Of a DNA stretch of 49,014 bases, positions 2,191-38,504 are shown in pieces (within the stretch, counting starts at the first letter, position 1; each line of letters opens with the position of its first letter). This DNA is from a virus. The DNA lies in the UHGV virus genome UHGV-1369627; one strand, 5' to 3'. A program made the position numbers and the translations under genes. The notes beneath the pieces are model-generated. The model saw only the letters and a program-made list of their open reading frames with translations. It did not search any database and had not been told where the DNA came from.

Positions 2191-2219
2191 AATCTACATC
2201 AAACCACGTCATTCATCAA
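2191..2219 (-). promoter_or_regulatory. promoter TTGATG-N17-TAGATT (minus strand)
   Basis: The -10 is the reverse complement of 2191..2196. The -35 is the reverse complement of 2214..2219. Confidence 0.45.
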
Positions 2220-2625
2220 GCCCAAAATAGAATAACGTCGCTCTTTTTAGCTCCTCAAGGCCATAAGCAATAGCGCCAAAGTGACCCTCTGCAATGGCGC
2301 ACTCCAGAACCTCAATCTGCGATGGCGATACTTTTGATTTTGTCTTATCACGCCTCTTCAGTTCAATCAGGCCGCATTTATGATTAACACCGTGGGTTAG
2401 TATCACGTTGTCGCTTACACCGCTCCTGACCCCCATTTTACGGCGTTTTTCGATGAACTGCGGCCCACTCTTTGTTCCAGTCTCGTTAGGCACATGAAAC
2501 CACAGGACTTCAGGGAATCGGTATTGCATCCAAATACCATAGGCCATCTGGTCAGTTTCCTCCCTTGGACACTCCCCGCGATAACCGCTATCAAATACCC
2601 ATATTCCACTATCAAGCTGCTTCAA
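2209..2625 (-). CDS. VRR-NUC domain nuclease
   Basis: 138-aa ORF with VRR-NUC-like blocks (GVSDNVILTHG...GLIELKR). Immediately follows the SF2 helicase, a common phage pairing. Confidence 0.65.
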   Translation of the reverse strand: MKQLDSGIWVFDSGYRGECPREETDQMAYGIWMQYRFPEVLWFHVPNETGTKSGPQFIEKRRKMGVRSGVSDNVILTHGVNHKCGLIELKRRDKTKSKVSPSQIEVLECAIAEGHFGAIAYGLEELKRATLFYFGLDE

Positions 2626-2635
2626 TTTTTTCTCC

Positions 2636-4546
2636 TTAAAATTCTTTTCTGTGGATTATGTCGCGGCCTTTATCGTTAAAACGATGCGTTATGCGCTTTG
2701 GCGCGCGGATAAGACCAGTGAACGCCATGAATGCTTTTGCGTTGTGGCAATTCATGAGGTTATCAATCATATTCCTGTCTGATACGTGGTTTAGTAATCC
2801 TTTAATCTTAAACTGATTTTTAAGGTACTTCTCCTGCCTGCCAAATGGATAGAACACCTCACCGGCCCAGCCATCTTTGCCGTTTTCTTTCGTGATGAAG
2901 TAACGATAGACAACGCCCTTCTCATCTTTCGTTAGCTCAATCTTGAAATCCTTGACTTCAGTCCATTCATTATCCGTATAAGCACGCTCATTAAGCGCCG
3001 CATTTGGGTCGCGTAAAACGTGATCGCATTGACGGCAATAACGAGCTGTCGGGTCGTTCTTTGTGCCGCAACCATCATCAAAAATACGGATGCCGTGCTT
3101 GTCGAAACCACAGCGAATGAAGCTGAAAAACTCTTCGCATCGTCCATCTGGCGATGTTGCATCTTTACCAATGCATCGCCGTGCGTATGGGCTGTTCATC
3201 GTCTGGCATTTAGGGCATGGAACCTGCTCTCCGCTGCGCTTGGCGCGTTGTGCTTCTGCTTCCTCAAGAATAGGGTCTTCATACAGGCCACCAAGTTCGA
3301 ACATGGTTCCGGTAAAGTCAAGGCAAAGATGGTTTTCTTTCACCAGGCCTGCGGCAATCTGGTCTGGCTTCAACAGGCGCATCGGTCTGCCTAGCAACTG
3401 CGTCAGAAGCGTCAGGGACATTATTTTTCTCAGAATGACAGACGTATCCCAATATGGGATGTTGACACCAGTCGTCAGGCAACCGATTTGCAGCGTGTAT
3501 TTTTTGCGCCCGGTTGCCGCATCTTTCAGAGCTTTCCGTCTGGCTTTCTGCCCCATATCCTCGGTAACAATGGAATAACTGCCTTCTGGTAAATATTTTG
3601 CAGCCTCCTTGCAATGTTTTTTACCTGCGCAGGTAATGAGTACACCAAGTCTGTCGCGCGTAAGCTCCATGACTTTGAGCATTATTTTTTGCGTCAATGT
3701 ACCCTGCTTGAGGATTTCTTCCTGCATCTCTTTTAGCTGGCTATCAGTAAAGTCCTGCACGCCGTCAACTTCACTACTGGCAAACTCATGCAGATCGTAT
3801 TGCAAGTCCTCGATATCCTGGCCGCCGAAAATTGTCGGAACCAGAAATCCAAGATCGACAAGGTATTTTGTGCTGATGTTGACAATTTCATGTTTCCAGT
3901 AAGCCCCTTTTATCGACTCAACGCCGCGAAATGGGCTGCCGGTGTAGCCGATGACAATCACCTCATGCCCATACTTCGCTTTACAGCGCCGGTTAAGTTC
4001 ATTCATAATGACACCGTACTGCGTCTCTGGCTGCTCTGATATTATGTCCTGCCAGTTAACCTGATGGCATTCATCGACAAGGATGTAGCGAGGGGAAAAG
4101 TCTGATAGCAGTGATTTCGTCACGGTGCCATCATCGGCTGTCTTATCAAAAAGACCATTTATTATTGTGCCCTCCGTTCCCGCTATAAGCGGATAGGCAT
4201 ATGCTTTACGCCCAAGTGAAGCGCTAAACAGAGAGTTTTTTACGCTCAGGTTCCAAAGCTCCTCAGCATCCTGCTCAATAATTTCGCCTTGCCTTGCGAT
4301 GACAAGCCCCTCCCACCCCATATCCTGAAACCGACGGGCAATCATGGCTATCATGATGGTCTTGCCAGCGCCAACCGACGCGGTAACATAACTTGGCTTG
4401 GGCTGCTTACCAAACTTGCGGATAACTTCCGCTGTCTTTTCATATACCAGCCACTGATAGGGGCGCGGTTCAATTTCCCCGGTATGGATGCTGGCTCGCA
4501 GCTTATCCATATCCAGCTCAGCAATCATTGCATCAATTTTTTGCAT
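2636..4546 (-). CDS. SF2 DEAD/DEAH-box DNA helicase with C-terminal Cys4 zinc ribbons
   Basis: 636 aa. Walker A GAGKT. DECH box LVDECHQ. C-terminal CPKCQ...CRQCDH zinc fingers. Confidence 0.8.
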   Translation of the reverse strand: MQKIDAMIAELDMDKLRASIHTGEIEPRPYQWLVYEKTAEVIRKFGKQPKPSYVTASVGAGKTIMIAMIARRFQDMGWEGLVIARQGEIIEQDAEELWNLSVKNSLFSASLGRKAYAYPLIAGTEGTIINGLFDKTADDGTVTKSLLSDFSPRYILVDECHQVNWQDIISEQPETQYGVIMNELNRRCKAKYGHEVIVIGYTGSPFRGVESIKGAYWKHEIVNISTKYLVDLGFLVPTIFGGQDIEDLQYDLHEFASSEVDGVQDFTDSQLKEMQEEILKQGTLTQKIMLKVMELTRDRLGVLITCAGKKHCKEAAKYLPEGSYSIVTEDMGQKARRKALKDAATGRKKYTLQIGCLTTGVNIPYWDTSVILRKIMSLTLLTQLLGRPMRLLKPDQIAAGLVKENHLCLDFTGTMFELGGLYEDPILEEAEAQRAKRSGEQVPCPKCQTMNSPYARRCIGKDATSPDGRCEEFFSFIRCGFDKHGIRIFDDGCGTKNDPTARYCRQCDHVLRDPNAALNERAYTDNEWTEVKDFKIELTKDEKGVVYRYFITKENGKDGWAGEVFYPFGRQEKYLKNQFKIKGLLNHVSDRNMIDNLMNCHNAKAFMAFTGLIRAPKRITHRFNDKGRDIIHRKEF

Positions 4547-4560
4547 TTTGAATCACCAAA

Positions 4561-5082
4561 TTATTTCAATCGACCAAAATCTTTGTGGTATTTTTTAGAT
4601 GCTATTGCATACGCCCTTGCGGCTGCTTCTTTTGTGGCATGCCTTCCAAGCCATATTTTTTTATTATTAACCCATATCCAGCAAGTCCATCTACCTGTCT
4701 GCTTGCAAAAACCTACACCTTTCACTCCTGATGTGTTGTGTTTTGGGGTTCTCATGTTTCTAACATTTTCGTTAAAGTTTGCCTCTCTAAGGTTTTCTAT
4801 TTTGTTGTTTAAAGGATTCCCATCGATATGGTCTATTATTAACTCAGGCCAATGACCATGCACTAACGCCCATATTATTCTATGAACCTTTATATCAAAG
4901 CCTAAAAAACCAACCTGAAGATATCCACTTACAGTCTTTGAGCCTGCAATGGCACCACGTTTCACCCTGTTTGTTGTTGTTCTTTTCCATATGAGATTTA
5001 TTCCGTCATATGAAAAATACTCACGTAGCATGGATAATGGTATTGACCTCTCTTTTGACTTCATCAATTCGAAATCATTCAC
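4561..5082 (-). CDS. HNH homing endonuclease with AP2 DNA-binding domain
   Basis: Contains IDHIDGNPLNNKIENLR and SGVKGV...W. Paralogous to the ORFs at 16722, 24056 and 37857. Confidence 0.75.
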   Translation of the reverse strand: MNDFELMKSKERSIPLSMLREYFSYDGINLIWKRTTTNRVKRGAIAGSKTVSGYLQVGFLGFDIKVHRIIWALVHGHWPELIIDHIDGNPLNNKIENLREANFNENVRNMRTPKHNTSGVKGVGFCKQTGRWTCWIWVNNKKIWLGRHATKEAAARAYAIASKKYHKDFGRLK

Positions 5083-5114
5083 TTTACGTTACCCTCATTC
5101 AGTGTTACGCTTAA

Positions 5115-5143: not shown

Positions 5144-5144
5144 C

Positions 5145-7964: not shown

Positions 7965-7985
7965 AACTCCTCCTTATTTTTGGTG

Positions 7986-8014
7986 ATTATAATATATTAA
8001 ATAAATCGGCGCAA
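7986..8014 (-). promoter_or_regulatory. sigma70-like promoter TTGCGC-N17-TATAAT for the leftward early operon
   Basis: Read on the minus strand. -10 corresponds to plus 7986..7991, -35 to plus 8009..8014. Confidence 0.4.
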
Positions 8015-8406
8015 CAGTGTTTCTTCCTGTGCTCGCATCCAATTTTTGGTTGAAATAGATAAAGATGGATAAGTGTTTGGATAAGTTTTTTTACATACTA
8101 TGTATATGTATTTACTACTATTATTATCAATAGATAGTAGTATTTATCCAATTCAACCCATTTTTTGCTTTGCGCAAATTTTAGCGAAAAAAAATGCATC
8201 AAAAATTTTCTACTTTTCTCTCATGGTGAAGGTTTAAGTGATAAATGGTTGAACATTGCATAAGTTAATGAAATTACATGGTTATTTATGGTTAAACCAA
8301 AAAAAATCTTGGGTTAAATGGGTTGAGCATGGTCTATATATATCAACAACTTGCAAAATTGATAACCGTAAGTGATTACTAACTAAATTTTATTTTCACC
8401 ATCATA

Positions 8407-8435
8407 TTGACGTAGATTTAGCGCAGTCGTATAGT
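8407..8435 (+). promoter_or_regulatory. early promoter TTGACGTAGATT-N11-TATAGT
   Basis: -35 TTGACG at 8407..8412, conserved TAGATT at 8413..8418, -10 TATAGT at 8430..8435. Lies 22 nt before the 8457 gene. Confidence 0.55.
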
Positions 8436-8456
8436 TACCACACCAACAACAAAGAG

Positions 8457-8651
8457 GTGATGAAAATGACCAAAGCAATCTACACGCGCACTCAACTTGA
8501 ACCAGAAATGGGCGCAGTGAAGGCGCAGAATTTTATGATGGCGCAGGCAATGCATGCATACAGCAACGGTAAGCGCGTATGTCGCGTTTTTAGTGGCGAA
8601 GGCAAGCACAGAACACTTGAGCAGGTTATCGTGTCATCTGGTGGAAAATAA
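8457..8651 (+). CDS. hypothetical early protein
   Basis: 64 aa, RBS AAGAGGTGA. Confidence 0.45.
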   Translation: MMKMTKAIYTRTQLEPEMGAVKAQNFMMAQAMHAYSNGKRVCRVFSGEGKHRTLEQVIVSSGGK

Positions 8652-8666
8652 ACCGGTTTAGCAACG

Positions 8667-8945
8667 ATGAATAAATTACTGGCAGTGGTTTTACTGGTTA
8701 TCGCTAACGCGGCAAGCGCTGAGACTATATGGGTCACAAAGTATGCACTGACCCGTGGCATTCAGAAGTACGAAAGCGCACAGCTATTTGCAGATGGTCA
8801 GGTTGCCGTAGTTGGCGATGTTTACTTTAAACGTGGTGAATACTGGCTTGATGAGCAACAGGCAAAAGAGCATGCAGAAACTTTGCGGCAACGTCGTGTA
8901 TCTGCATTGATGCGTGAGCTTGAGCGTTTACAGGCGGTTAAGTAA
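8667..8945 (+). CDS. small secreted (signal peptide) protein
   Basis: 92 aa. N-terminal MNKLLAVVLLVIANAASA-E matches an SPI signal peptide. Confidence 0.5.
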   Translation: MNKLLAVVLLVIANAASAETIWVTKYALTRGIQKYESAQLFADGQVAVVGDVYFKRGEYWLDEQQAKEHAETLRQRRVSALMRELERLQAVK

Positions 8946-8966
8946 AGAATACTTGTGAGGTGTGTG

Positions 8967-9167
8967 ATGACAAGCAAAAAGAAGGTAGCAGACAAGAAAT
9001 TTCAGGATGCAATGCAGGCAGTGCATGCTGCTGGCGAGGACAGGGTGAACTATTGCCTTAGTTTTATTCTAGGGTATCTTGAAAGCACCGGCAAAACAGA
9101 AATGCTTCACGAATGGGATGATGCTTGTATGCGAATCAAGTTATCTTCTGGCGAGCAAATTCATTAA
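8967..9167 (+). CDS. hypothetical protein
   Basis: ORF 8955..9167; likely start at MTSKKK. Confidence 0.35.
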   Translation: MTSKKKVADKKFQDAMQAVHAAGEDRVNYCLSFILGYLESTGKTEMLHEWDDACMRIKLSSGEQIH

Positions 9168-9181
9168 CAGAGAGCATAAAA

Positions 9182-9652
9182 ATGACTATAAATATTAACG
9201 AAGTTCAGGAAATTATTAAAAACCTTGAGAGCAGTGGTGAACTCTCAATTAAAGAGGAAAAATACCTCAAGGTTGCAAAGCTGTGCGTTCAGCTGGCTGC
9301 GGAGAATGTAGGCATGGATGGATTCGTCGAAGAGATGCTCGCTATCGCATGGCAGGGAGGTTTCACTGATGGCTCCGATATTCAGGAGTTAGCCCTGAAG
9401 CATGGCCTTATTAGGCAAGAAGTATATTGCGCTGATAAGCACGAAAACTGCGTGTACGACCCAGGCAATTTCGATGATGGTGATGCGGTTTACTTCCGCA
9501 TGGAACCCTCTACCACCGATCGCATCGTAGCCGGGATTAAGGCTGATGGGGTAGAGGAGTTCGCTTCGTATATTTCGCTCTACAATAGCAACGCGGAGCG
9601 CCATGCCATTGATTTTGCCAAGCAACTGCGCGAGGGAGTCAATCATGACTGA
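9182..9652 (+). CDS. hypothetical protein
   Basis: ORF 9125..9652; likely start at MTININ with RBS. Confidence 0.45.
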   Translation: MTININEVQEIIKNLESSGELSIKEEKYLKVAKLCVQLAAENVGMDGFVEEMLAIAWQGGFTDGSDIQELALKHGLIRQEVYCADKHENCVYDPGNFDDGDAVYFRMEPSTTDRIVAGIKADGVEEFASYISLYNSNAERHAIDFAKQLREGVNHD

Positions 9653-10112
9653 TATCACCGAACTGGCGCTGAACCTGAAAGCGGCAGCAGAGAAAGCAAA
9701 ACATGCAGGGGAGGCTCCGATAATGTCTTTCGATGCTCGAATCTCAGCGCTTAGCGAATACCAGATTACGGCATGCCCAGATAATGTTCTCGCGCTGGTA
9801 GAGGCGCTGGAGAAGGCGAAGGGGATGGAAACCTACTGGAAAACTCAATGCCGTGGGATAACAGACCACTGCGAGGAGTTGCAGGCGCGCATCGCCCAGC
9901 TGGAGTCCCGCACCGTGAAGCTTCCGAAGCCACACGCCCACTTAATCTGGATTCAGGCAGGTCATGCGCCAGATGATTACTGGGATGATGTAGCGGTATC
10001 TCATAGCGAGAAAGACCGTTGCTGTGATGGCTCAGAGCGCTATCCGGTTTATGCACGCTGGGAAATTGAAGAGATGCTTACCGCCGCTGCCATCAAGGTG
10101 GAGGCTGAGTGA
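9645..10112 (+). CDS. hypothetical coiled-coil protein
   Basis: ORF 9603..10112; likely start at MTDITELA, overlapping the upstream stop. Confidence 0.45.
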   Translation: MTDITELALNLKAAAEKAKHAGEAPIMSFDARISALSEYQITACPDNVLALVEALEKAKGMETYWKTQCRGITDHCEELQARIAQLESRTVKLPKPHAHLIWIQAGHAPDDYWDDVAVSHSEKDRCCDGSERYPVYARWEIEEMLTAAAIKVEAE

Positions 10113-10284
10113 TGCGTAAATCACCAATGGCAATTGAGATCGCTATGGCTTGTTTATCCATTTTCCGCGCAGTTGATGCTTTACATATCAAAGCGCCCTG
10201 GCATCAGGGTCGCGCGGTTTCAAATCGCCATACCGGTAAAGCAGCAGAACGCCGTAATGCCAAACGTCGCAGGAGAGCAAAGAA

Positions 10285-10938
10285 ATGAATAATTCAATAA
10301 CCAGAGAGCGCCTGGAAGAAATTGTCAGCGACCCAATGATTAATCAGGGGGGCGAGTTTGCGATGATGGCCCGCATGGCGCTGGCCGCAATGTACAGCGA
10401 GCCGGTGGCTGATGATTACTTTGCTTCTCTTGTTACTCAAGCGCGTGCGCGAGCTGACAAAGCGATGCGTAAATTCCCCCAACCTAATTACGTGTTGAAT
10501 AAAGTAGCGGAAGAAAGTGGGGAAGTCATTAAAGCTGTCATTCACTACACCGAGGGGCGTGAAGAGTGGCGAAACGTTGAAGGTGAAATTATCGATAACC
10601 TGGCGATGCTTATTCGATTAGTGCAGGAAGGCGATCAGGTTATTGGTTTTACTCCGCCTACAGACTGCCGCGCCGCCATGCTCGCAGCCGCCCCGCAGTC
10701 TCCCGGCAGTGACCCTGCCACCGTGCCGGGCAAATGGATTCCGGTAATCGAGCGGTTGCCTGAATCAGATACTAGAGTGCTTCTTTATTTTTCTGATTAC
10801 GATGGTCATATTGAGGACGGGTTTATTGGCGATAACGGTGATGGCCTATCCCACTACCTTTTTGATGGGGACTGTTTTGGGATAAACCCAACACACTGGC
10901 AACCTCTTCCAGCCGCCACGCGGGAGGCTAAGCCATGA
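10285..10938 (+). CDS. MazG-like all-alpha NTP pyrophosphohydrolase fused to a DUF551 domain
   Basis: N-terminal VLNKVAEESGEVIKAV...EGEIIDNLAMLIRLV is MazG/HisE-like. C-terminal WIPVIERLPE...THWQPLP is DUF551-like. Confidence 0.55.
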   Translation: MNNSITRERLEEIVSDPMINQGGEFAMMARMALAAMYSEPVADDYFASLVTQARARADKAMRKFPQPNYVLNKVAEESGEVIKAVIHYTEGREEWRNVEGEIIDNLAMLIRLVQEGDQVIGFTPPTDCRAAMLAAAPQSPGSDPATVPGKWIPVIERLPESDTRVLLYFSDYDGHIEDGFIGDNGDGLSHYLFDGDCFGINPTHWQPLPAATREAKP

Positions 10939-11188
10939 AACCCTACATCATCCGCAGGCTTGTTGCCGCATCGCTGATGGCATTCTGGATTGCTGCTGCA
11001 TTAGCCGTCTACTTTATCGTGAGGTGATTTATGCTGTGGAGCGATATTCAGGCGGCATGCGAAGAGGCTGACTTCCTGTATGAGGAGACAGGGAAGCATC
11101 ATGCCGTCATTCAGGTTGGCAGCATGATGATGGTTGTTGAGCATAACAGCATGCTTCGGCATATGTACTCAACGACTAGGTATCAGTA

Positions 11189-11383
11189 ATGCCACAAAAA
11201 TCAAAGCAGGAGGTATGGCAGGAGGCGCAAATTGAAGGCGTCGACCACTTCATAGCAGCAATCTCCAAAGCTTTTCCTGATGCGATTGAGGTGGTTCACG
11301 TTCAAAGCAATAACTGTAATGTTTGGTGTTATGCGAAAACTGATGTACAATCATCTCATCAATCATCACCCACCACCCTTTAA
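11189..11383 (+). CDS. hypothetical protein
   Basis: 64 aa, followed by the terminator at 11383..11407. Confidence 0.4.
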   Translation: MPQKSKQEVWQEAQIEGVDHFIAAISKAFPDAIEVVHVQSNNCNVWCYAKTDVQSSHQSSPTTL

Positions 11384-11407
11384 CCCGCTTCGGCGGGTTC
11401 TTTTTTA
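11383..11407 (+). terminator. rho-independent terminator
   Basis: Stem ACCCGC, loop TTCG, stem GCGGGT, then TTCTTTTTT. Confidence 0.7.
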
Positions 11408-11433
11408 TGGCTCATGCGACATGGTGTAGAATC

Positions 11434-11442
11434 TGATACAAT
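11434..11442 (+). promoter_or_regulatory. late promoter, extended -10 TGaTACAAT
   Basis: Same 9-mer as upstream of the tail fiber gene. Lies 43 nt before terS. Confidence 0.45.
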
Positions 11443-13471: not shown

Positions 13472-13497
13472 AGCCCTCATTAGAGGGCTGTTTTTAT
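13472..13497. terminator. bidirectional rho-independent terminator
   Basis: AGCCCTC-ATTA-GAGGGCT followed by GTTTTTA. Confidence 0.65.
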
Positions 13498-14028
13498 CCA
13501 TTCCATTGGCTCTGTAAGAATCATTTTGTTTCTTTTGCTAAGATTCATAACAGCAGGAATAACCTGTATATTATTGGCGCAATGCAATCCGCTTACATAT
13601 TTTGCTCTTAGTGGAATCATGTGGTCAACATGCCAATCGAAACCTATCTCCTTTGTTCTCGCTTGAGATAAAAGGTACGCCTCAGAAATAACAAATTCGT
13701 CCCATTCTGTTAATGATATTTGAGATGCCTGCCTGGACTGTGTTTTGTATTTCTTGTTTTGGTAGTTCCTTTTGCTTCTGTTTTTTTCTCTATAACTTTT
13801 GTTTAACTCTGCAATCTTTGTTGCATTATTTTTCTTATAGTTGGAGTTCTTTTTTTGTATTTTATCTTGATTTCTTCTTCTGTAATCCTGTTGAATTAAC
13901 CTCAAGCAATCTACGCAACCATAACCAATGTGTCTGTCACATTGATGACCGTTCTTGCATGTCCTGCCGGTGTTGTAGAATTTAACGCCAAGGCATATAG
14001 CGTCTTTTCTTGTTTTTGGAATCTGCAT
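13480..14028 (-). CDS. HNH endonuclease (HNHc type) adjacent to the terminase
   Basis: WHVDHMIPL...GLHCANNIQV HNH motif. Cys-rich N-terminus. Confidence 0.65.
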   Translation of the reverse strand: MQIPKTRKDAICLGVKFYNTGRTCKNGHQCDRHIGYGCVDCLRLIQQDYRRRNQDKIQKKNSNYKKNNATKIAELNKSYREKNRSKRNYQNKKYKTQSRQASQISLTEWDEFVISEAYLLSQARTKEIGFDWHVDHMIPLRAKYVSGLHCANNIQVIPAVMNLSKRNKMILTEPMEWIKTAL

Positions 14029-14062: not shown

Positions 14063-14091
14063 AATCTACACCACCACATAATCCACGTCAA
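14063..14091 (-). promoter_or_regulatory. promoter TTGACG-N17-TAGATT (minus strand)
   Basis: -35 is the reverse complement of 14086..14091. -10 TAGATT is the reverse complement of 14063..14068. Confidence 0.5.
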
Positions 14092-14104: not shown

Positions 14105-14395
14105 TTATTTGTAAAGCCAGCAATGAATCCCCGCATTGCGCATGGCAACATAAATCACGTCATCATTCACGACCGCCATCGCCACCCTGTCAGCGTCAAT
14201 CTTCTGGTGCGATGCCATAATGTCATCATAGAAAATATCGTTAGCATGCAGCCACTCATACGCATGCTTTGCCCTCATGATAAGCACATCATGCCCGGCA
14301 GAGTAGAGTGACTTAGCCAGTGCCGCGTTACCAGCAATAGCATTTCCTTCCGCATCGCGCAGCACACCATCAAGCTCAAAAATGACACATTTCAT
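14105..14395 (-). CDS. HAD-superfamily-like fragment
   Basis: 96 aa. MKCVIFELDGVL resembles HAD motif I but has Glu in place of the first Asp. Too short for a complete HAD fold. Confidence 0.45.
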   Translation of the reverse strand: MKCVIFELDGVLRDAEGNAIAGNAALAKSLYSAGHDVLIMRAKHAYEWLHANDIFYDDIMASHQKIDADRVAMAVVNDDVIYVAMRNAGIHCWLYK

Positions 14396-14421: not shown

Positions 14422-14450
14422 AATCTACGCCATGCTAGAATCTACGTCAA
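14422..14450 (-). promoter_or_regulatory. promoter TTGACGTAGATT-N11-TAGATT (minus strand)
   Basis: The 12-mer is the reverse complement of 14439..14450. A second TAGATT is the reverse complement of 14422..14427. Confidence 0.5.
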
Positions 14451-14483
14451 GGCGCGTTGACATAACTACATCACCGGGGCATC

Positions 14484-16721: not shown

Positions 16722-17213
16722 ATGCTTACTCAAGAAGAACTGAAACGTGTGCTCAGATACAACCATGAAACTGGTGTTTTCATTTGGATTAAATCAGTTG
16801 CGAAGCGAATAGCAGTAGGTGATGTGGCTGGAAACTTAGACCCAGCTGGATACATAAGAATAAGATACAAAGGATGCCTGTATCGGGCACACACCCTGGC
16901 ATGGCTTTACCATTATGGTGAATTCCCTTGTATGGATGTTGATCATATTGATTGCAATAAAACAAACAACTCAATAGCAAACTTAAGACTTGCCACCAAG
17001 CATGAGAATGCAACAAATAGACCGTTGCAGAAAAATAACACATCAGGAGTGAAGGGTGTTAGGTGGAACAATAGAGATAAAGTCTGGACTGCATCTTTTG
17101 TTTTTATGGGTAGGTACATTCACGTTGGAAGCTTTAAAGATAAAAATAGAGCAGCAAGTGCGATAAAAGCCGCCAGGGAGCTAACACAGAGTAACTTCAT
17201 CAACAACGGCTAA
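16722..17213 (+). CDS. HNH homing endonuclease with AP2 domain
   Basis: VDHIDCNKTNNSIANLR and SGVKGVRW motifs. Confidence 0.75.
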   Translation: MLTQEELKRVLRYNHETGVFIWIKSVAKRIAVGDVAGNLDPAGYIRIRYKGCLYRAHTLAWLYHYGEFPCMDVDHIDCNKTNNSIANLRLATKHENATNRPLQKNNTSGVKGVRWNNRDKVWTASFVFMGRYIHVGSFKDKNRAASAIKAARELTQSNFINNG

Positions 17214-20987: not shown

Positions 20988-21032
20988 CTTGAATCCCCTG
21001 TGTTTGTGTAACTACATCATCGCCTACGATTC

Positions 21033-21044
21033 AATCTACGTCAA
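21033..21044 (-). promoter_or_regulatory. conserved 12-mer TTGACGTAGATT (minus strand) in a divergent control region
   Basis: Exact copy of the early-promoter 12-mer; the -10 is unclear. Confidence 0.4.
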
Positions 21045-21052
21045 GGTTATTG

Positions 21053-21061
21053 TGATAAAAT
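21053..21061 (+). promoter_or_regulatory. late promoter, extended -10 TGaTAAAAT
   Basis: Lies 25 nt before the endolysin start. Confidence 0.45.
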
Positions 21062-21085
21062 AATCTGCATCACCGGAGGTAATAA

Positions 21086-23485: not shown

Positions 23486-23514
23486 TGTCGCTCTCCTGTG
23501 AAATCATCTTGACT

Positions 23515-23526
23515 AATCTACGTCAA
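23515..23526 (-). promoter_or_regulatory. conserved 12-mer TTGACGTAGATT (minus strand)
   Basis: Lies 30 nt upstream of the 23485 start. A plus-strand GGTGTAGATT at 23543..23552 probably serves the rightward operon. Confidence 0.4.
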
Positions 23527-23580
23527 TTAGTCAATACTTGCTGGTGTAGATTGTAACATAAATAGATAAGGTGGTGTGGA

Positions 23581-23796
23581 ATGAAGAAGTGGCAGGAGGT
23601 GACAGAGGTTCATAAGCGCGATTGCCGGGAGACTCTGCAAATGCTTAATGTTCCAGAGTCAATCATTAAATCTATCGAGCAGCGCATTGACCTGGCTGCT
23701 ATGGAGGCCGCCCATGAAGCCGAGGAAGCGCAAATGTTGTCATGGATGGACAGAACTCTACCGGGCGTTTTACATCGTGGTAAGACTACCGATTGA
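23581..23796 (+). CDS. hypothetical protein
   Basis: 71 aa, RBS AAGGTGGTG. Confidence 0.45.
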   Translation: MKKWQEVTEVHKRDCRETLQMLNVPESIIKSIEQRIDLAAMEAAHEAEEAQMLSWMDRTLPGVLHRGKTTD

Positions 23797-23879: not shown

Positions 23880-24071
23880 ATGACTACTGATCAGGTGTAC
23901 GAAAAAGAATTGCTGAACAAGCTGGAAGAACTTGACCGTACTCGCGCTTGGGTTGAAAGCGAATTGCGCGAGGTTCGCAACCGTATGCAACGGCAGGTTA
24001 ACCGCGAAATTATCGAGTGGCGCGAAGGGCGCCCGCATTTCAGCAATATTGGTGAATGGGTGGCGAAATGA
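23880..24071 (+). CDS. hypothetical protein
   Basis: 63 aa. Confidence 0.4.
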   Translation: MTTDQVYEKELLNKLEELDRTRAWVESELREVRNRMQRQVNREIIEWREGRPHFSNIGEWVAK

Positions 24072-24553
24072 ACTTTTCAGACGCCTTCAGTTACATTGAT
24101 GGAATCCTAATCAGGAAGACAAGAACCAGCAACAGGGTTAATGTCGGTGATTCGGCTGGAACTATTCGTCCTGATGGTTATTTGCAGGTTAGATTTCTAG
24201 GCAAGCTGCATCTTGTTCACAGGATTGTATGGGAGATGCACAATGGGCCAATACCAGAGGGGATGGAAATTGACCATATAAACCACATAAAAACAGATAA
24301 CAGAATAGAGAATTTAAGGGTGGTTGACAGGGCCAAAAACCAAATGAACAGGCCAATGCAGAATAACAATGGGAGTGGGGTTAATGGGGTTGATTGGAGT
24401 AAAAGCAATCGCTCATGGAGGGCGCGAATCAGAATTGGTGGTCGAGAGATTCATCTTGGTTACTTCAACAAACTTGATGACGCAATCGAAGCCAGAGGGA
24501 TGGCTAATTTGAAATATAGATTTCACAGCAATCATGGGGTGGCAAAATGTTAA
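24056..24553 (+). CDS. HNH homing endonuclease with AP2 domain
   Basis: IDHINHIKTDNRIENLR and SGVNGVDW motifs. Confidence 0.75.
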   Translation: MGGEMNFSDAFSYIDGILIRKTRTSNRVNVGDSAGTIRPDGYLQVRFLGKLHLVHRIVWEMHNGPIPEGMEIDHINHIKTDNRIENLRVVDRAKNQMNRPMQNNNGSGVNGVDWSKSNRSWRARIRIGGREIHLGYFNKLDDAIEARGMANLKYRFHSNHGVAKC

Positions 24554-24783
24554 TGAATGATGAGGGCCTTCTGGAATGCCCGCTTTGTGGTGGTAATGAT
24601 GCATATAGTGATTTTTGTCATCGCAGAAAAAAGCATTTTGTCGTCTGCTGGGTATGCAGTTGCAATACCGGAGAGCAGCTAAGCATGTCGTCAGCAATCA
24701 GAAAGTGGAACACCAGAAATGGCCACCTCTACACCGCTGACGACTACAAACAGGATGCAATGGAGCGCGCAAATGGACTTTAA
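24547..24783 (+). CDS. lar: Lar-family restriction alleviation protein
   Basis: 78 aa. CPLCGG...C..C zinc ribbon and ...IRKWNTR, like Rac prophage Lar. Confidence 0.55.
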   Translation: MLMNDEGLLECPLCGGNDAYSDFCHRRKKHFVVCWVCSCNTGEQLSMSSAIRKWNTRNGHLYTADDYKQDAMERANGL

Positions 24784-25243
24784 AACGCAAATACTCACGG
24801 TGATAGAGCGCTGCGGCGGTGCAACCAATGCCATGATACGCAAGCAGACTGGCATGACAAACCGAGCAAGTGTTACTGGCTATCTGATTGAGCTTGAGGG
24901 TATGGGATTTATTATTAAAGAGGAAAGCGTCAGCTATGGCAGGCGCTGCTTTAAGTATTTCCTCAATCCCGATAATACCGCGCTTGACCTGGCAATTCAG
25001 ACCTATCTTGAGGCGAATCCAGGGCGCAAGAGCAAGCAGATAGCAGAGGCTATCGGCGTCAAGTACACCATCCTCAAGGCACGCATGCGCTATCTGGCAA
25101 GCATTGGTCAGGTTGACCGCGAAATGCTCCCAGGTGGAGCATGGAAATATTACTGGCAGGAAATCATCCCGTTTGGCATGAGCCGTGACAGGATGATGTT
25201 TGAGAAGTTGCTTGCCGGGGCCCGCCAGTCATGTGGGCAGTAA
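24773..25243 (+). CDS. winged-helix DNA-binding protein (two wHTH-like repeats)
   Basis: Start at MDFKTQ within ORF 24719..25243. Confidence 0.45.
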   Translation: MDFKTQILTVIERCGGATNAMIRKQTGMTNRASVTGYLIELEGMGFIIKEESVSYGRRCFKYFLNPDNTALDLAIQTYLEANPGRKSKQIAEAIGVKYTILKARMRYLASIGQVDREMLPGGAWKYYWQEIIPFGMSRDRMMFEKLLAGARQSCGQ

Positions 25244-31190: not shown

Positions 31191-31365
31191 CCGGGTCTGC
31201 GTAGAAATTCAGTAGCTTTATGAAATCTCTTTTCCCTGAATGATTAAGATAAAATCCGGCAATTTCATTAAATACTTCATTTGATGCTTTTACAGAGAAG
31301 CCCATGTTGAGTGCGTCACGGGCTGCAATGGCCGCTTTTTTTGTTGTTTCTTTAATGCTCATCAC
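31180..31365 (-). CDS. hypothetical protein
   Basis: 61 aa; last gene of the ParB-like operon. Confidence 0.4.
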   Translation of the reverse strand: MMSIKETTKKAAIAARDALNMGFSVKASNEVFNEIAGFYLNHSGKRDFIKLLNFYADPDKQ

Positions 31366-31901
31366 TAAATCCTCATCGGCATAACGATAACTTTGGCAGT
31401 CTCGCCAGTTGGCGCACTGATGTTTGCGACGGCCGCGCTGGTGTTTCCGTTCAGTTCAAAGAGCACCGCTTCAAATTTCGGGTTAAACAGCCTCGCCAGC
31501 TTCTCAACATCTGCCAGATATTTGGCATTAAAGCCAATCTGTTCTGCTGGCGCAGTCTGCTTTGGAGTAACACGATCAATGTAAGGGAATCGGCCATTAA
31601 TCTCAGAGCAGATACCTGCGCCTACCATGATTTCATGCTCGTCATGGTAAGTAACAATACCTGTTTTGGTGTCCAGTAGCGCATGCGCATAGCGCTTGGT
31701 TGGCGACTTGCTGACAGAAACGATAACGTTATCTTTCAACTTATTTTCATGCTTACTGGCAATCATGGCGCGATGACCGTCAGTAGCGGCAACTCGACCA
31801 TCAGGCATAAAGCAAATGCCATTCAGGTAGTAACGCACATCATGTTTGGCCTGAAATATCAAAGCACCTTCAAGGAGCAACTTGCTAACTTTTAATTTCA
31901 T
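31365..31901 (-). CDS. truncated DNA polymerase III beta sliding-clamp (DnaN) homolog, about 178 aa
   Basis: Shares blocks with E. coli DnaN: KHDVRYYLNGICF...ATDGHRAMIA, GRFPYIDRVTPK, IGFNAKYLADV and C-terminal VIVMPMRI. RBS GGTGAAGGTGAAG. Start at MKLKVS within ORF 31365..31943. Confidence 0.65.
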   Translation of the reverse strand: MKLKVSKLLLEGALIFQAKHDVRYYLNGICFMPDGRVAATDGHRAMIASKHENKLKDNVIVSVSKSPTKRYAHALLDTKTGIVTYHDEHEIMVGAGICSEINGRFPYIDRVTPKQTAPAEQIGFNAKYLADVEKLARLFNPKFEAVLFELNGNTSAAVANISAPTGETAKVIVMPMRI

Positions 31902-32101: not shown

Positions 32102-32271
32102 TCATCATAAAATAAGAAATGCCTTGTTTTTTCTTCGTAACGCTTCATTTCAAATGCGATTATGTCCTCCTGATAGTGAATTTTATCCACCTGGCGAACC
32201 ACGCCGTCTCGCATTAGGATATGATCGCCTTCTTTTATGTTTTTTGCAGCAGTGCCAATTGTAATCATCAC
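32074..32271 (-). CDS. hypothetical protein
   Basis: 65 aa. Confidence 0.4.
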   Translation of the reverse strand: MMITIGTAAKNIKEGDHILMRDGVVRQVDKIHYQEDIIAFEMKRYEEKTRHFLFYDECANVVESW

Positions 32272-33119
32272 AGCTTCTCCAGAATCGCCAGCACTTCATT
32301 CAACTCCGCAGAAGGAAGGCGCAAAAATTCTTCTGTCTCCTGTGCCACATGGCCCTCAGCTACAACCATGTGATCTGCTTCTTTCAGCAACTGAATCAGG
32401 CGGTCAATCGGCTTAACTTTTTTGGCCTTGAGCGTTTTCGCCGTCACCTTATCTTTGCCCTGCGCTTTCGCTTCCTCAACGGCAGCATCAATAACGTTAA
32501 CGGCATCATCGCCATGCTCACGCGCCACTGCAACGGCGTTGGCATAGCTGATTTGTCCTGCGTTGATTCGCTGCTTGATGGCATCAGGCACATCACCAAG
32601 TGACAGGTGCATCTGCACATCAGAAACTGAGCGGCCTACTTTTTTGGCGATTTCTTCATTCGTCCATCCGAACCCTTTCAGGCGCACATAAGCCTTTGCA
32701 CGCTCAAGCGGGTCGAGTTGCTTGCCCTGACTGGAAGACACCATGAAGGCGATTTTATCCGCTTCATCACCGGTGAAGTCTTTGCACTCAATGCGCGCAA
32801 TTGGCACGCCGCGATCAATGGCACGCAATGCACCAAGATAACGATGCTGACCGTCAAGAATCTTAATGCGCTTTCCGTCAGTATCAGGAATAACAGTTAA
32901 CGCCGGGATTGGCTGGCCTGATTCCCAGCACTGCGCGAAGTATTCAACGTGCTGCTCATCTGCTTCGCGGATGTTGTACCCCGGCTCAAGGTAAAGCTGA
33001 TCGACAGGAACCTGATAACCTTTGTTGACCACGATTCCGCCGCGAGTTTCTTTGTCTGAGTAAATTTTTCCGAGAGATGTCATCTTTTCCTCACTTTGAT
33101 AAACAGATTGCACTGGCAA
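32268..33119 (-). CDS. ParB-like nuclease domain protein (ParB/Srx fold)
   Basis: ILDGQHR motif. HTH-like central region. Lys-rich C-terminus. Confidence 0.65.
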   Translation of the reverse strand: MPVQSVYQSEEKMTSLGKIYSDKETRGGIVVNKGYQVPVDQLYLEPGYNIREADEQHVEYFAQCWESGQPIPALTVIPDTDGKRIKILDGQHRYLGALRAIDRGVPIARIECKDFTGDEADKIAFMVSSSQGKQLDPLERAKAYVRLKGFGWTNEEIAKKVGRSVSDVQMHLSLGDVPDAIKQRINAGQISYANAVAVAREHGDDAVNVIDAAVEEAKAQGKDKVTAKTLKAKKVKPIDRLIQLLKEADHMVVAEGHVAQETEEFLRLPSAELNEVLAILEKL

Positions 33120-33203: not shown

Positions 33204-33521
33204 TCATTTGGATTCTCCGAGTGCTTTGGTGATGGCAGAAACCAACTTCTCTCTAAGGTCTGGTTTCTGCTGCGACATCCAGAATCCAATCTCATCAAGT
33301 GTCGAGGTTAACGCTTCCAGCAACTCCGGCGCAGCGGCCATTATTCGTTGGTTAGCAACTTGAACCTCAACTTCAGGGTCAAACTCAACCCAACCGACAG
33401 GAATAATCATTCCATAAGACTGGTCGTCCTCTGTTGATTTTGGCCCTATTGCCCTGTCGTTATCGATAAACCACGGCCCAGGCGTACCTTTGAATTCATT
33501 CATCTTCATCACCTCTAACAT
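33204..33521 (-). CDS. hypothetical protein (Ead/Ea22-like motif ...ANQRIMAAAPELLEAL...)
   Basis: 105 aa. First gene of the leftward operon. Confidence 0.45.
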   Translation of the reverse strand: MLEVMKMNEFKGTPGPWFIDNDRAIGPKSTEDDQSYGMIIPVGWVEFDPEVEVQVANQRIMAAAPELLEALTSTLDEIGFWMSQQKPDLREKLVSAITKALGESK

Positions 33522-33531
33522 TTATTGTTGT

Positions 33532-33572
33532 TTCTACGTCATCACTATAGCGACACCCTCAATCTACGTCAA
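33532..33572 (-). promoter_or_regulatory. early promoter TTGACGTAGATT-N11-TATAGT (minus strand) with a downstream TGACGTAGA half-repeat
   Basis: The 12-mer is the reverse complement of 33561..33572. The -10 is the reverse complement of 33544..33549. A second TGACGTAGA copy is the reverse complement of 33534..33542. Confidence 0.55.
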
Positions 33573-33579
33573 CACTTTA

Positions 33580-34854: not shown

Positions 34855-34857
34855 TGT

Positions 34858-35705: not shown

Positions 35706-35740
35706 AAAATGCCGCTAATAAGCGGCATGTTTGTTTCTGC
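35703..35740. terminator. bidirectional rho-independent terminator
   Basis: ATGCCGCT-AATA-AGCGGCAT with T-runs on both strands. Confidence 0.75.
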
Positions 35741-35918
35741 TTCTTAAATAATCCAATGCTTCGTCAAAGGATTCGAAGCTGGTATCATATCGCCCATTAG
35801 CATTTGCAACAACATACCACTTACCTACCTTTGATATGCCAGCAATCCTGCTGTTATTTTTGTCAGCTATGCGCCAGTAATCATCGTGGATTTTTTGGAT
35901 TTGTATCATTGCGCTCAC
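35715..35918 (-). CDS. hypothetical protein distal in the tRNA transcript
   Basis: 67 aa. Confidence 0.4.
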   Translation of the reverse strand: MSAMIQIQKIHDDYWRIADKNNSRIAGISKVGKWYVVANANGRYDTSFESFDEALDYLRSRNKHAAY

Positions 35919-35924
35919 CGAAGA

Positions 35925-36001: not shown

Positions 36002-36004
36002 ATT

Positions 36005-36081: not shown

Positions 36082-36089
36082 GCTGAATA

Positions 36090-36177
36090 TGGCGGATAGT
36101 ACAGGATTCGAACCTGTGAACCGTTTCCGGTTTATCGGTTAGCAACCGACTGCTTTCGGCCTCTCAGCCAACTATCC
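36090..36177 (-). tRNA. tRNA-Ser (GCT), class II with long variable arm
   Basis: Acceptor GGATAGT/ACTATCC. Anticodon loop TTGCTAA. Variable stem ACCG-GAAA-CGGT. Confidence 0.75.
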
Positions 36178-36564
36178 GTGTTGTTGTGGTGGCCGGTGCT
36201 GATCTCCGGCTTTCTCTGGCATTACGCGTACCCAAGACTATTCTCCAGAGATAGCGCTGTCCTCATCAAGGGGTGCCGTCTCTAACGTATCAGCCTACGC
36301 ATTCACCACAACGATAATGGCACTCGCCAGAGTGGAATATTTTTCAACCGACTGTGAATATCAGGGAGTCCAAGTGCCATTACCTGTTGTGTGCCCATTA
36401 TTAATCACACCGGGCCAGTGCGCCGAATTCATTGACAAGGAGTCGGAAGACCTTGCTGGTGTTTAGCCGTTAGGCTACTGCCAGATACATTTCTTCGTTT
36501 GCATTTATCTTTGTGGTCAGTTTCTAAAAACCCGCAAAGTCGCACCGAAAACTATCTGCCATTT

Positions 36565-36593
36565 AATCTACACCACCAATCAAAACCTGTCAA
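36565..36593 (-). promoter_or_regulatory. promoter TTGACA-N17-TAGATT (minus strand) driving a ~380-nt leader plus the tRNA cluster
   Basis: -35 is the reverse complement of 36588..36593. -10 is the reverse complement of 36565..36570. Confidence 0.5.
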
Positions 36594-36595
36594 CA

Positions 36596-36604
36596 TGATA
36601 TAAT
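36596..36604 (+). promoter_or_regulatory. late promoter, extended -10 TGaTATAAT
   Basis: Lies 34 nt upstream of the major tail gene. Confidence 0.5.
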
Positions 36605-36638
36605 GCGATTGTTTAGCTAAACACAGAGGATTCTAAAC

Positions 36639-37394
36639 ATGGCTATTTGTGCAAATGATAACGGCATCATCACAGGCCGCCAGTCGCTCATTGAGCTGGC
36701 TGATGGCTGCTGGGATGCTGTGCCAGCAGAGGAAGACTGGAAGTTTTTTGCTCCCATGACCTCAAAAGGCGTCGACTTCAGCCCAAGCACCACCACCTCA
36801 GAGGCTGATGATGGCGATGGCTTTGTCGCCACGCTGGTCACTACCGCAGACCTCACCATTTCTGGTGATTTCGAAGTTCGCAAGGCCGACAAGGCTGATG
36901 AGTATGGCGTGCATAATCTCATCAAATACTTTGTCACAGAAGTTAAAGCGCGTCGCCAGCCGTCGCTGTGGGTTCGTCAAACGACTGGTAACACCGTCGT
37001 GGTAGCTTACTGCAACATCACCGCGCTGAGCTACGATGGCGGCACCAACGACATCATCACCGGATCGGTTGAATTCAAGCCTTATGATGGCTCTACCGTT
37101 GATGTGTCCAGCATCGAAGATTTGACGCTGACTACTGATATCAGCGCAACCAAAAGCGTTGCTACTGGCGCCACTCTGACGCTTGGCCCTGTTGCAGCTT
37201 CTGGCGGTGTAGAGCCTTATACCTATCAGTGGTATAAAGGAACCACGCCGATCAGCGGTGCTACTACCGACACGTTCACCAAGGCCACTGCTGCCGCAGG
37301 TGATGCTGGTACGTACTTCTGCCGCGTGATGGACTCGGCAACAAGTCCTGATTACGTTGACTCCACCAAGTGTGTTGTTACCGTTACGGCATAA
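36639..37394 (+). CDS. major tail protein with C-terminal Ig-like (Big_2-type) domain
   Basis: 251 aa. C-terminal ...PYTYQWYKG...GTYFCRV... Ig fold. Followed by a strong terminator. Confidence 0.7.
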   Translation: MAICANDNGIITGRQSLIELADGCWDAVPAEEDWKFFAPMTSKGVDFSPSTTTSEADDGDGFVATLVTTADLTISGDFEVRKADKADEYGVHNLIKYFVTEVKARRQPSLWVRQTTGNTVVVAYCNITALSYDGGTNDIITGSVEFKPYDGSTVDVSSIEDLTLTTDISATKSVATGATLTLGPVAASGGVEPYTYQWYKGTTPISGATTDTFTKATAAAGDAGTYFCRVMDSATSPDYVDSTKCVVTVTA

Positions 37395-37425
37395 AGAAAA
37401 CCCCCGAAAGGGGGTTTATTTTCTC
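37395..37425. terminator. bidirectional rho-independent terminator
   Basis: AAACCCCC-GAAA-GGGGGTTT followed by ATTTTCT. Confidence 0.75.
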
Positions 37426-37584
37426 AGCAGTGAAGACACGCGGATTCTCCACAATGACAAGTTAGCGAGCGATACCGCTAAATCCATGTGAATCAATCTA
37501 AGCTTTTCAATATCAACAAAGACCGGGCCGTTGTATTGTTGATTGCTTCTTATGTACTTTGAAATAGTATCAGCATCATTATTA

Positions 37585-37860
37585 TCAAGGTTCATCATCA
37601 TCCTCCTCACTAATCGCAGTATCGAGTTGTCGGCGCAGCATACACAGCGCACCATGCGGCATAAACTGATTAGCCATCCCATCGAATATCTTCCGGTTTA
37701 ATTTATTATCAATGCGTGGTCTGATTGCAGACCAGCATGACCTGATTGCGCGATTTACCGGCCTGCGGTCCAGCATTGCGAGTCGCGCAGCTAACTCAAT
37801 GGTAATGAGCGCGTCAAGATACTGCTCGCAGGCGTAGCGATTTTCGTTATCCATAATCAT
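37585..37860 (-). CDS. hypothetical protein
   Basis: 91 aa. Downstream of the HNH with a 4-nt overlap. A competing ORF lies at 37416..37682. Confidence 0.35.
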   Translation of the reverse strand: MIMDNENRYACEQYLDALITIELAARLAMLDRRPVNRAIRSCWSAIRPRIDNKLNRKIFDGMANQFMPHGALCMLRRQLDTAISEEDDDEP

Positions 37861-38342
37861 TTACCATGGTTCTCATGAAAATTATACTTAACCTCCGCCT
37901 TTCTCCTTGCTTCAGCGGCCATATTTAAGTCAGAAAACAATCCAAGATGAATCTTTACGCCATCAACTTTTATGTTTGAGGCCCATTTTTTATGTTGCTT
38001 ATCCCATGAAACACCAGTAACACCTGATTTGTTTGTCACCCTGAACTTCATGTTGTGATTATTCTCTTTTGGAGTGACAAGCCTGAGGTTATCTATCTTA
38101 TTGTTTGTTTTATTGTGGTCTATATGATCAATCTGCATTCCGTCAGGAATTTTCCCATTATGCATTTCCCAGATGATGCGATGAACAAGATACTTGACGC
38201 CATAGATTCCAACAATCTTATATCCATTACCTCCTACCGCCTTCACCTCGCTTCCGATTTTCACTCTGTTTGAGGCTCTTATCTTCCAGTAAATAGCCCC
38301 ATCACAATAATAAAAAATATCTGACCAATCAGTTATTTTCAT
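37857..38342 (-). CDS. HNH homing endonuclease with AP2 domain
   Basis: IDHIDHNKTNNKIDNLR and SGVTGVSW motifs. Closest paralog of the 24056 gene. Confidence 0.75.
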   Translation of the reverse strand: MKITDWSDIFYYCDGAIYWKIRASNRVKIGSEVKAVGGNGYKIVGIYGVKYLVHRIIWEMHNGKIPDGMQIDHIDHNKTNNKIDNLRLVTPKENNHNMKFRVTNKSGVTGVSWDKQHKKWASNIKVDGVKIHLGLFSDLNMAAEARRKAEVKYNFHENHGK

Positions 38343-38469
38343 CGAATGTCACCCCTACCATTGCAAGTAATTTTTTCGCCATCAACTCGGCCTCATCATA
38401 GGTAAACCCGCAATCAACGTACAGGTCGATGTAAAATCTCAAATCAGCATCTGTTTCGCTCATCTTATG

Positions 38470-38504
38470 CACTCCTTATAGCTTACCAAATCAATCTACG
38501 TCAA
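38470..38504 (-). promoter_or_regulatory. early promoter TTGACGTAGATT-N12-TATAAG (minus strand)
   Basis: The 12-mer is the reverse complement of 38493..38504. The -10 is the reverse complement of 38475..38480. Drives an unlisted 42-aa ORF at 38339..38467 and the HNH. Confidence 0.5.

Follow-up and report, generated by a model that had tools for sequence, protein, structure and literature searches.

Short DNA words repeated at many promoters of one genome are known from several mobile elements, either as the binding sites of one regulator, such as the operators of the phage P1 repressor C1 and the OB sites of KorB in the IncP plasmid RK2, or as parts of the promoters themselves, such as the conserved words of the early and middle promoters of phage T4. 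A word of this kind is described here in the 49,014-nucleotide virus genome UHGV-1369627 (the window, i.e., the whole stretch of DNA that was analysed), in which the 12-mer TTGACGTAGATT had been proposed by an earlier sequence-only reading to define a family of early promoters. The window is a Roufvirus-like Klebsiella siphovirus that is built, by our own gene map and the annotation of relatives, of short gene cassettes on alternating strands. Over 40-76% of the window, an identity of 85-93% is shared with the phages KP591P1, KP591P3 and VLCpiS13a-f of Klebsiella and with pIS4-A of Aeromonas, the type species of Roufvirus; farther relatives (~80% capsid identity) are found among the siphoviruses of Salmonella and Escherichia, in Skatevirus, Macdonaldcampvirus (phage E1) and Segzyvirus. 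Cassettes have been swapped among relatives, and the genome is mosaic. No description of these promoters was found in the literature on the word's sequence and on the four genera.

The promoters that carry the word are read here, with slightly better than even confidence, as host sigma70 promoters with a built-in putative operator for a global regulator, and the ParB-like protein encoded in the window is put forward, tentatively, as the predicted reader of the word. The comparison of sites speaks rather for the binding site of a regulator than for a promoter signature alone. The sequences show the enrichment and the placement of the word, the make-up of the promoters, the units bounded by terminators, the selective constraint and the changes of orientation; we infer that a protein binds the word, which protein this is, and that the effect is repression.

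The repeated word and the constraint upon it

The 12-mer occurs in six exact copies, at 8407 on the plus strand and at 14439, 21033, 23515, 33561 and 38493 on the minus strand, all of them in the intergenic gaps of our gene map, which was made with a heuristic codon-usage gene caller of our own and checked by eye against the annotation of relatives. The copies are those that had been reported, and none was expected by chance, the word being absent from all 100 dinucleotide-preserving shuffles of the window. Intergenic DNA constitutes ~9% of the window (4.5 kb) and 11.8% of the 1.68 Mb of the relatives; the most intergenic-enriched 7-mers of the window are pieces of the word, with GTAGATT intergenic in 11 of 16 occurrences (P 1e-8).

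The 12-mer as the unit was not upheld by the orthologous sites in relatives, which read CTGACGTAGATT, GTGACGTAGATT, GATGTAGATT or the tandem GACGTAGATTGATGTAGATT and include CTGACG-, GTGACG- and GATG- versions, and the conserved unit is, as judged from these sequences, the 11-mer TGRYGTAGATT with the core GTAGA. When scored by a position-weight matrix, 34 matches to the 11-mer were obtained in the window, 19 of them intergenic versus 1.65 expected, and 545 of the 623 degenerate matches in the relatives (87%) were intergenic. A T was found just 5' of the searched pattern in 65 of the 67 independent intergenic site families, though unrequired by the search. Degenerate searches also give false hits at 23572-23584 and in relatives, where the ribosome-binding site plus start GGTGGTGTGGAATG resembles the word (GGTGTGGAAT).

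Four usages of the word were distinguished: fused to the -35 element (TTGACG-TAGATT), with the -10 element 17-18 nt after TTGACG; as the -10 itself (TTGACR-N17/18-TAGATT); around +1; and inverted, adjoining the extended -10 "late" promoters. The expectation that TAGATT stands either beside the -35 or as the -10 was thus borne out, both arrangements being seen, while the idea of a word tied to one position and orientation was not, as inverted and palindromic copies exist, some of which adjoin late-type promoters. Direct pairs of copies are spaced by 10, 17, 24 and 30/31 nt, and tandem copies with a 10-nt period were met in the comparison of the window with its relatives.

The constraint on the word was traced in the promoter of the ParB-like operon, aligned at 76 loci (61 distinct sequences) with the leader instead of the motif as the anchor. 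The loci belong to two clades without upstream similarity, and the upstream flank was not conserved. The sequence TTGACGTAGATTG was conserved to at least 90%, the next ~10 nt of the spacer had two to four alleles per column, TATAGT was fixed, and, after two or three variable bases, TGA(C/T)GTAGAA and the entire leader were fixed as well. The second copy just after the -10, TGACGTAGA at 33533-33541, which had been thought operator-like, is conserved in 76 of 76 loci with the same leader. The leader itself (at 33505) is invariant in the 76 loci, with at least eight different first genes downstream of it among relatives.

Such promoter-plus-leader blocks might instead persist as sites of homologous cassette exchange, like the T4-type PeSL cassettes, and one and the same promoter and leader before at least eight different first genes in a genome made of swapped cassettes would agree with it. 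However, a word of 11-12 nt is too short for homologous recombination, the spacer copies, the palindromes and the strict TAGATT rule at the -10 (see below) would be left unexplained, and no conserved stem-loop goes with the sites, the sole hairpin (23509-23534) having z = -1.7; a role as a recombination linker is, therefore, regarded as highly improbable.

A clean split was seen in the 78 site families that were classified. Where the word serves as the -10, with a -35 16-18 nt upstream, it is exactly TAGATT in 23 of 23 families, and the families with the word fused to the -35 or placed elsewhere relax to TGGATT, TAGATA, TAGAAT and TAGAAA; these forms, and GCAGATA as well, are, by their sequence, unusable as a -10 by sigma70. 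In the sister clade L088, all the -35-fused copies read TTGACGCAGATA, which is not -10-like, and the -10 copies stay TGATGTAGATT. Two superimposed constraints are thus indicated by exact TAGATT at the -10 and relaxed forms elsewhere, one being the -10 rule and the other acting independently on TGRYGTAGA. The proposal that conservation goes beyond the needs of sigma70 finds support both in the footprint and in the relaxed copies that are not -10 elements.

The word also changes its orientation at corresponding places. After the -10 of the 21033-type promoter, the direct GATGTAGATA is found in Klebsiella phages and the inverted ATCTACATCA in Segz_1 and L059; upstream of the terminase operon, the direct TGGTGTAGAAT of the window corresponds to an inverted ATCTACG(C/T)C in KP591P1, VLCpiS13f, pIS4-A and Segz_1, which sits between a terminator and an extended -10, where no gene can be driven. 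Fusions of the word, in reverse complement, to an opposite-strand extended -10 (TGnTAnAAT joined to CTACRYC) were seen in six site families, which come from two genomic regions, with ~0.4% expected by chance. In L074/L076/L077 and L089, the promoter of the ParB-like gene itself has its -10 covered by a 16-bp palindrome, GTAGAT-N4-ATCTAC (N4/5 spacing in the set), and in L087 an inverted pair AATCTAC-N5-GTAGATT is found at the promoter of this gene; the phage collection has no isolate close to the clade L074. The raw count of GTAGA-N0-8-TCTAC pairs is close to chance, so that only the 12-base versions within promoters are meaningful, and no parS-type palindrome ATCTAC-N0-2-GTAGAT was found. Such orientation flips and palindromes are what is typically seen in the binding site of a protein, rather than in an element that the polymerase recognizes.

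The explanation by a plain promoter signature has to be weighed here, according to which the word would be a clade-specific strong sigma70 early-promoter consensus used by the host RNA polymerase alone, like the T4 and T5 early promoters, with TAGATT beside the -35 as a second overlapping -10. All the copies are indeed at or adjoining a promoter, TTGAC and TAGATT qualify as -35 and -10 sequences (the -10 of lambda PRM is TAGATT), and the site at 38493 carries two staggered promoters on one 12-mer. However, this explanation is faced with near-invariant copies unusable for sigma70 (TAGAAA at +1 in 76 of 76 leader-anchored loci; TGGATT, TAGTTA, GCAGATA), with inverted and palindromic copies that flip their orientation, with an inverted copy right after a terminator and no gene to drive, and with the TG of the word falling at -17/-16 and -14/-13 instead of the extended -10 position -15/-14, and we consider it unlikely on its own.

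Under the preferred reading as operator-bearing sigma70 promoters, an occupied site would exclude RNA polymerase, because the word shares bases with the -35, -10 or start site in nearly all the cassette promoters. A single protein could, by such a dispersed operator network, turn down the cassettes together, its own operon included, and the copies adjoining the extended -10 promoters may link the structural and lysis genes into the same circuit. A broader proposal, which we put forward only as a possibility with the odds against it, is that a ParB/KorB-family protein would be a genome-wide transcription regulator in the virulent enterobacterial siphoviruses (Roufvirus, Skatevirus, Macdonaldcampvirus, Segzyvirus and relatives), acting via ~20 half-parS-like GTAGATT sites, which at nearly all the cassette promoters would have become fused to the -35, -10 or start site. 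Such a protein would time the whole programme and possibly keep the genome silent in a carrier state, and changes in its recognition helix and in the sites would have co-evolved between clades.

Word promoters and transcription units

The sites of the window, to which the promoter elements and transcription units below refer, are the following.

8407..8435, plus strand: promoter TTGACGTAGATT-N11-TATAGT with the word fused to the -35; heads the cassette 8466-11383, with the terminator at 11382-11399
14422..14450, minus strand: promoter TTGACGTAGATT-N5-GGCGTAGATT, driving 14105-14395
14463..14473, minus strand: degenerate copy TGATGTAGTTA upstream of the 14439 promoter
14063..14091, minus strand: promoter TTGACGTGGATT-N5-TGGTGTAGATT between two minus-strand genes, driving 13480-14028, with the terminator at 13472-13489
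21009..21072, minus strand: three co-oriented copies at 21062, 21033 and 21009, compared with relatives
23515..23552, both strands: inverted pair of TTGACGTAGATT (minus, 23515-23526) and TGGTGTAGATT (plus, 23542-23552)
33531..33572, minus strand: promoter of the ParB-like operon, TTGACGTAGATT-N11-TATAGT-GA-TGACGTAGAAA, with the second copy at about +1; the site of the footprint of 61 distinct sequences
36565..36593, minus strand: promoter TTGACA-N17-TAGATT with TGGTGTAGATT as the -10, for the tRNA-Ser/Arg/Met cluster and 35715-35909, with the terminator at 35709-35728
38475..38522, minus strand: two staggered promoters on one 12-mer, TTGACA-N18-TAGATT and TTGACG-N18-TATAAG
2191..2219, minus strand: internal promoter TTGATG-N17-TAGATT with TGATGTAGATT as the -10
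11422..11442, plus strand: copy TGGTGTAGAAT, which immediately precedes the extended -10 TGATACAAT of the terminase operon

By these sequences, the word sites behave as a sigma70-type promoter family that heads non-structural cassettes, as the sequence-only reading had supposed. In an independent consensus promoter scan they were at or near the top of the hits, with TTGACG-17-TATAGT (8407, 33572), TTGACA-17/18-TAGATT (36593, 38522) and TTGACG-17-TAGATT (14450, 14091). A -35-like hexamer, a spacer of 16-18 nt and a -10 with A2 and T6 were found together at 8407, 14439, 14080, 33561, 36588, 38517, 38499 and 2214, in a weak form at 21033 (GATGAT), and not at 23515 and 23545. The sites stand upstream of correctly oriented genes in our gene map, the leaders are everywhere 21-33 nt long, as counted up to the ATG from the -10 or from whichever copy is nearest, and the cassettes headed by the word end at strong bidirectional terminators (11382, 13472, 22223, 31158, 35709, 37398).

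The individual elements that had been ascribed to the sites were found in part. A -10 at 11-12 nt after the 12-mer is present at 8407 and 33561 (11 nt, TATAGT), 14439 (11 nt, TAGATT) and 38493 (12 nt, TATAAG); at 21033, where the 12-mer serves as the -35, there is only the weak GATGAT at 17 nt, and at 23515 there is no convincing -10. The spaced variant TTGAC[GA]-N17-GGTGTAGATT is present at 14063 and 36565, the sequence at 14422 is GGCGTAGATT, and at 2191 the -35 is TTGATG and the word TGATGTAGATT.

Several sites contain more than one copy. Two copies 17 nt apart make up the promoter at 14422..14450, the first being fused to the -35 and the second being the -10, and the degenerate copy at 14463..14473, which is conserved in L001-L003, directly follows TTGACA on the plus strand. 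In the triple site at 21009..21072, TGATGCAGATT (21062) lies on the start region of the plus-strand endolysin promoter and TGATGTAGTTA (21009) spans the -10/+1 region of the 21033 promoter. Neither copy of the pair at 23515..23552 has a good -35, and the reverse complement of the plus-strand copy (23542-23552) is fused to the minus-strand extended -10 TGTTACAAT (23550-23558). At 2201-2211, a decayed copy TGACGTGGTTT precedes TGATGTAGATT, and relatives carry there the perfect tandem GACGTAGATTGATGTAGATT. At 38493, TTGACA stands 18 nt upstream of TAGATT, and the 12-mer at this site is probably a -10 rather than, or besides, a -35; the orthologues of 38475..38522 read CTGACGTAGATT with no downstream -10. 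The promoter at 8407 is conserved in KP591P1, VLCpiS13f and pIS4-A.

The genes served are non-structural and comprise small unknown ORFs, HNH endonucleases, a polynucleotide-kinase-like protein and the exonuclease VIII operon, as well as the three tRNAs, the ParB-like protein and a MarR-like protein. We infer the "early" timing of the word promoters from the gene content alone, because the genes served are non-structural and the structural and lysis modules are on extended -10 promoters, TGnTAnAAT, 11 of the 17 matches to which are intergenic, with 10 of those 11 on the plus strand. Extended -10 elements with no good -35 were noted on the plus strand at 11434, 17218, 21053, 26188, 30058, 33580, 36596, 38523 and 45975, the class preceding the terminase, portal, endolysin, head, tail-tube and tail genes.

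Other observations concern the surroundings of the sites. The ribosome-binding and start block GAGGTGATGAA(R)ATG is identical behind three promoters (2162-2172, 8454-8464 and 33505-33515). On the minus strand at 23509-23534, TTGACTAAT-TGACGTAG-ATTAGTCAA can pair as a 9-10 bp hairpin around the 12-mer; the fold, with the z value given above, is not significant, and the hairpin potential is kept in relatives by different sequences. The ~390 nt between the 36565-36593 promoter and the tRNA-Ser (36178-36564, minus strand) have no ORF in our gene map and no Rfam match, and in relatives the stretch right after the TAGATT of this promoter is swapped for different sequences. In the genome-reduced Salmonella phage seszw (L086), the 21033-type promoter at 43534-43575 has lost 19 nt, so that TTGACG abuts TATAGT and the promoter should be dead, judging by its spacing; the inverted copy adjoining this promoter is retained. 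A stretch of ~440 bp (7965-8400), AT-rich and non-coding, separates the primase/helicase cassette from the 8407 promoter; it holds the tandem TGGATAAGTGTT/TGGATAAGTTTT, inverted TTATCCA-type words and A-runs and could, by these features, be a replication origin. Genes of HNH endonucleases were identified by Pfam at 24068-24553 and 37857-38342, within or at the edges of cassettes, and a third ORF (16932-17213) has the position at which relatives annotate an HNH gene; the presence of all three varies among relatives.

Candidate readers of the word

The Pfam search on ~40 cassette proteins yielded two DNA-binding proteins.

32268..33083, minus strand: ParB/KorB-family helix-turn-helix (HTH) protein, the leading candidate reader of the word, from Pfam, PDB and recognition-helix comparison
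24773..25243, plus strand: two-domain winged-helix (MarR-like) protein, the second candidate

The ParB-like protein matches HTH_ParB (4e-11) and KorB (2e-6) in Pfam, and Spo0J (3e-11), together with ParB, Noc and KorB, in PDB, and it is on these matches a true homologue of Spo0J/ParB/Noc/KorB. It is 81% identical between clades, its gene (seszw_18 in seszw) is kept in about 70 of the 72 near-identical (at least 99%) records, mostly seszw genome-reduction mutants, and the promoter of its operon has two copies of the word or a palindrome in every clade examined. The recognition helix RSVSDVQMHLSL, or its V-to-I form, accompanies GTAGATT, even in L089, the replication genes of which are lambdoid; the helix QQ accompanies GGTAGATT, the helix HT accompanies GCAGATA, and the lambdoid prophage homologues with more diverged helices have no such word. 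In the phages with a distant ParB-like protein (L080-L084, L090, L091), nothing convincing was found when an analogous dispersed word was looked for; the phages and prophages L080-L084 and L090 are rich in Chi (GCTGGTGG), which ranks among the commonest of their 8- and 9-mers. In the ParB-like operon of the window, the 178-aa product of 31365-31901 (minus strand) has weak matches, below the threshold, to the beta-clamp domains of DNA polymerase III; seszw_16, which by its position and its length (178 aa) seems to be the counterpart in seszw, carries a beta-clamp annotation and has been deleted from seszw_290S, and the gene of the same length at this position in pIS4-A is annotated as RusA-like.

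Several points weigh against an operator read by this protein. ParB-family proteins normally read 16-bp palindromes, and the window itself has no 13-16 bp palindromic site, its copies being single, direct or widely spaced. The CTP-binding box II of the ParB-like protein reads GQHR, not GERR (DGQHRYLGA versus GERRYRAA of Spo0J). The spacings between copies share no single helical phase. A part of the word consists of genuine sigma70 elements (TTGAC, TAGATT), so some of the conservation is ordinary promoter selection, and the related loci are not phylogenetically independent. The correlation between the recognition helix and the word, which is suggestive at the sequence level, comes from about five clades and is confounded by their relatedness. 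Finally, the ParB-like gene may have been kept simply as one untargeted in the seszw genome-reduction study (PMC9825161).

The MarR-like protein has two winged-helix domains of a generic winged-helix fold, and it is only 36% identical between clades with an identical word. Its homologues are found in this phage group alone, and the presence/absence profile therefore cannot tell it from the ParB-like protein. A MarR-like homologue has been deleted from seszw_290S (PMC9825161), a genome-reduced phage that is viable and keeps all the motif promoters, including those of the essential replication operons. Therefore, the MarR-like protein was rejected as a required activator, and as a reader of the word it is downgraded, by these comparisons, to the second candidate.

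This result bears on the alternative of a positive control, in which a phage protein on the word would recruit or re-target the host polymerase to middle promoters, as MotA does at the T4 MotA box (-30). In its favour, the -35-fused word spans ~-34 to -24, some copies act as a -10 without a -35, and at two sites (21033 and 33561) the TAGATT of the word is found, in reverse complement, exactly at the position expected for the -35 of the divergent extended -10 promoter, 16-18 nt before the -10 of that promoter. However, copies over the -10 and +1 cannot activate, most of the promoters have a near-consensus -35 at the right spacing, no MotA/AsiA Pfam family was present among the ~40 proteins scanned, a part of the ORFs, and the MarR-like protein is dispensable in seszw, yet the essential helicase/exonuclease operons use word promoters. 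An activator is, for these reasons, thought very improbable.

A transcription factor of the host, conserved in Enterobacteriaceae, might bind the word as well, since the word is identical in the phages of Klebsiella, Salmonella and Escherichia while the MarR-like protein of the phages differs so much between clades. However, the variants of the word track the phage clades and not the hosts, and we know of no enterobacterial factor whose site matches it; a host factor is given the slimmest chance. None of the usual consensus sequences of DnaA, IHF, FNR, CRP and alternative sigma factors fits the word. A role at the RNA level was also rejected, as Rfam gives three tRNAs only and the hairpin at 23509-23534 is not significant.

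Comparison with known regulatory systems

How genes are regulated in this widespread group of siphoviruses of Klebsiella, Salmonella and E. coli has not been studied, though many members have been proposed for therapy. Should the word prove to be an operator, it would provide a complete map of the transcription units and a candidate master regulator, together with an example of a ParB-family protein in the global transcription control of a lytic phage. The relatives that infect E. coli K-12 (the BASEL Skatevirus isolates) and the genome-reduced seszw make the model testable. The conserved promoter-plus-leader blocks are, besides, ready-made insertion and expression sites for engineering these phages.

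Among the known systems, the T4 early-promoter consensus and the T4-type PeSL cassettes resemble the phage in a conservation beyond the -35 and -10 and in blocks that flank variable small genes, whereas the phage word occurs in several positions and both orientations and has no conserved stem-loop. In the T4 middle promoters, likewise, a word specific to the phage takes the place of the -35 region or overlaps it, with an ordinary -10 downstream; however, the sequences are unrelated, TGRYGTAGATT not matching the MotA box (a/t)(a/t)(a/t)TGCTTtA at -30, and the phage usually has a good -35 and places its word also at the -10 and +1. The extended -10 pattern (TGnTATAAT) fits the second promoter class of the window, in contrast to the TGRYGTAGATT promoters, which are without a TG at -15/-14.

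The operators of P1 C1 are like the word network in that many asymmetric copies are scattered over the genome, overlap the promoters of separate operons and are all read by one repressor. The P1 site differs, being a 17-bp sequence ATTGCTCTAATAAATTT unrelated to the word, and it serves lysogeny; to our knowledge, no lysogeny is known in the phage group of the window. The KorB-OB regulon differs from the phage in its OB site, a 13-bp palindrome TTTAGCSGCTAAA, the phage word being another sequence that is mostly single or in direct repeat, with palindromes in sister clades only; the phage protein has the box II GQHR, its binding is predicted, and the element is a virulent-type siphovirus instead of a plasmid. 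The two are alike in that a ParB/KorB-family HTH protein is encoded in the element itself and that one short site is dispersed in ~12-20 copies, many of them at promoters, including that of the protein's own operon.

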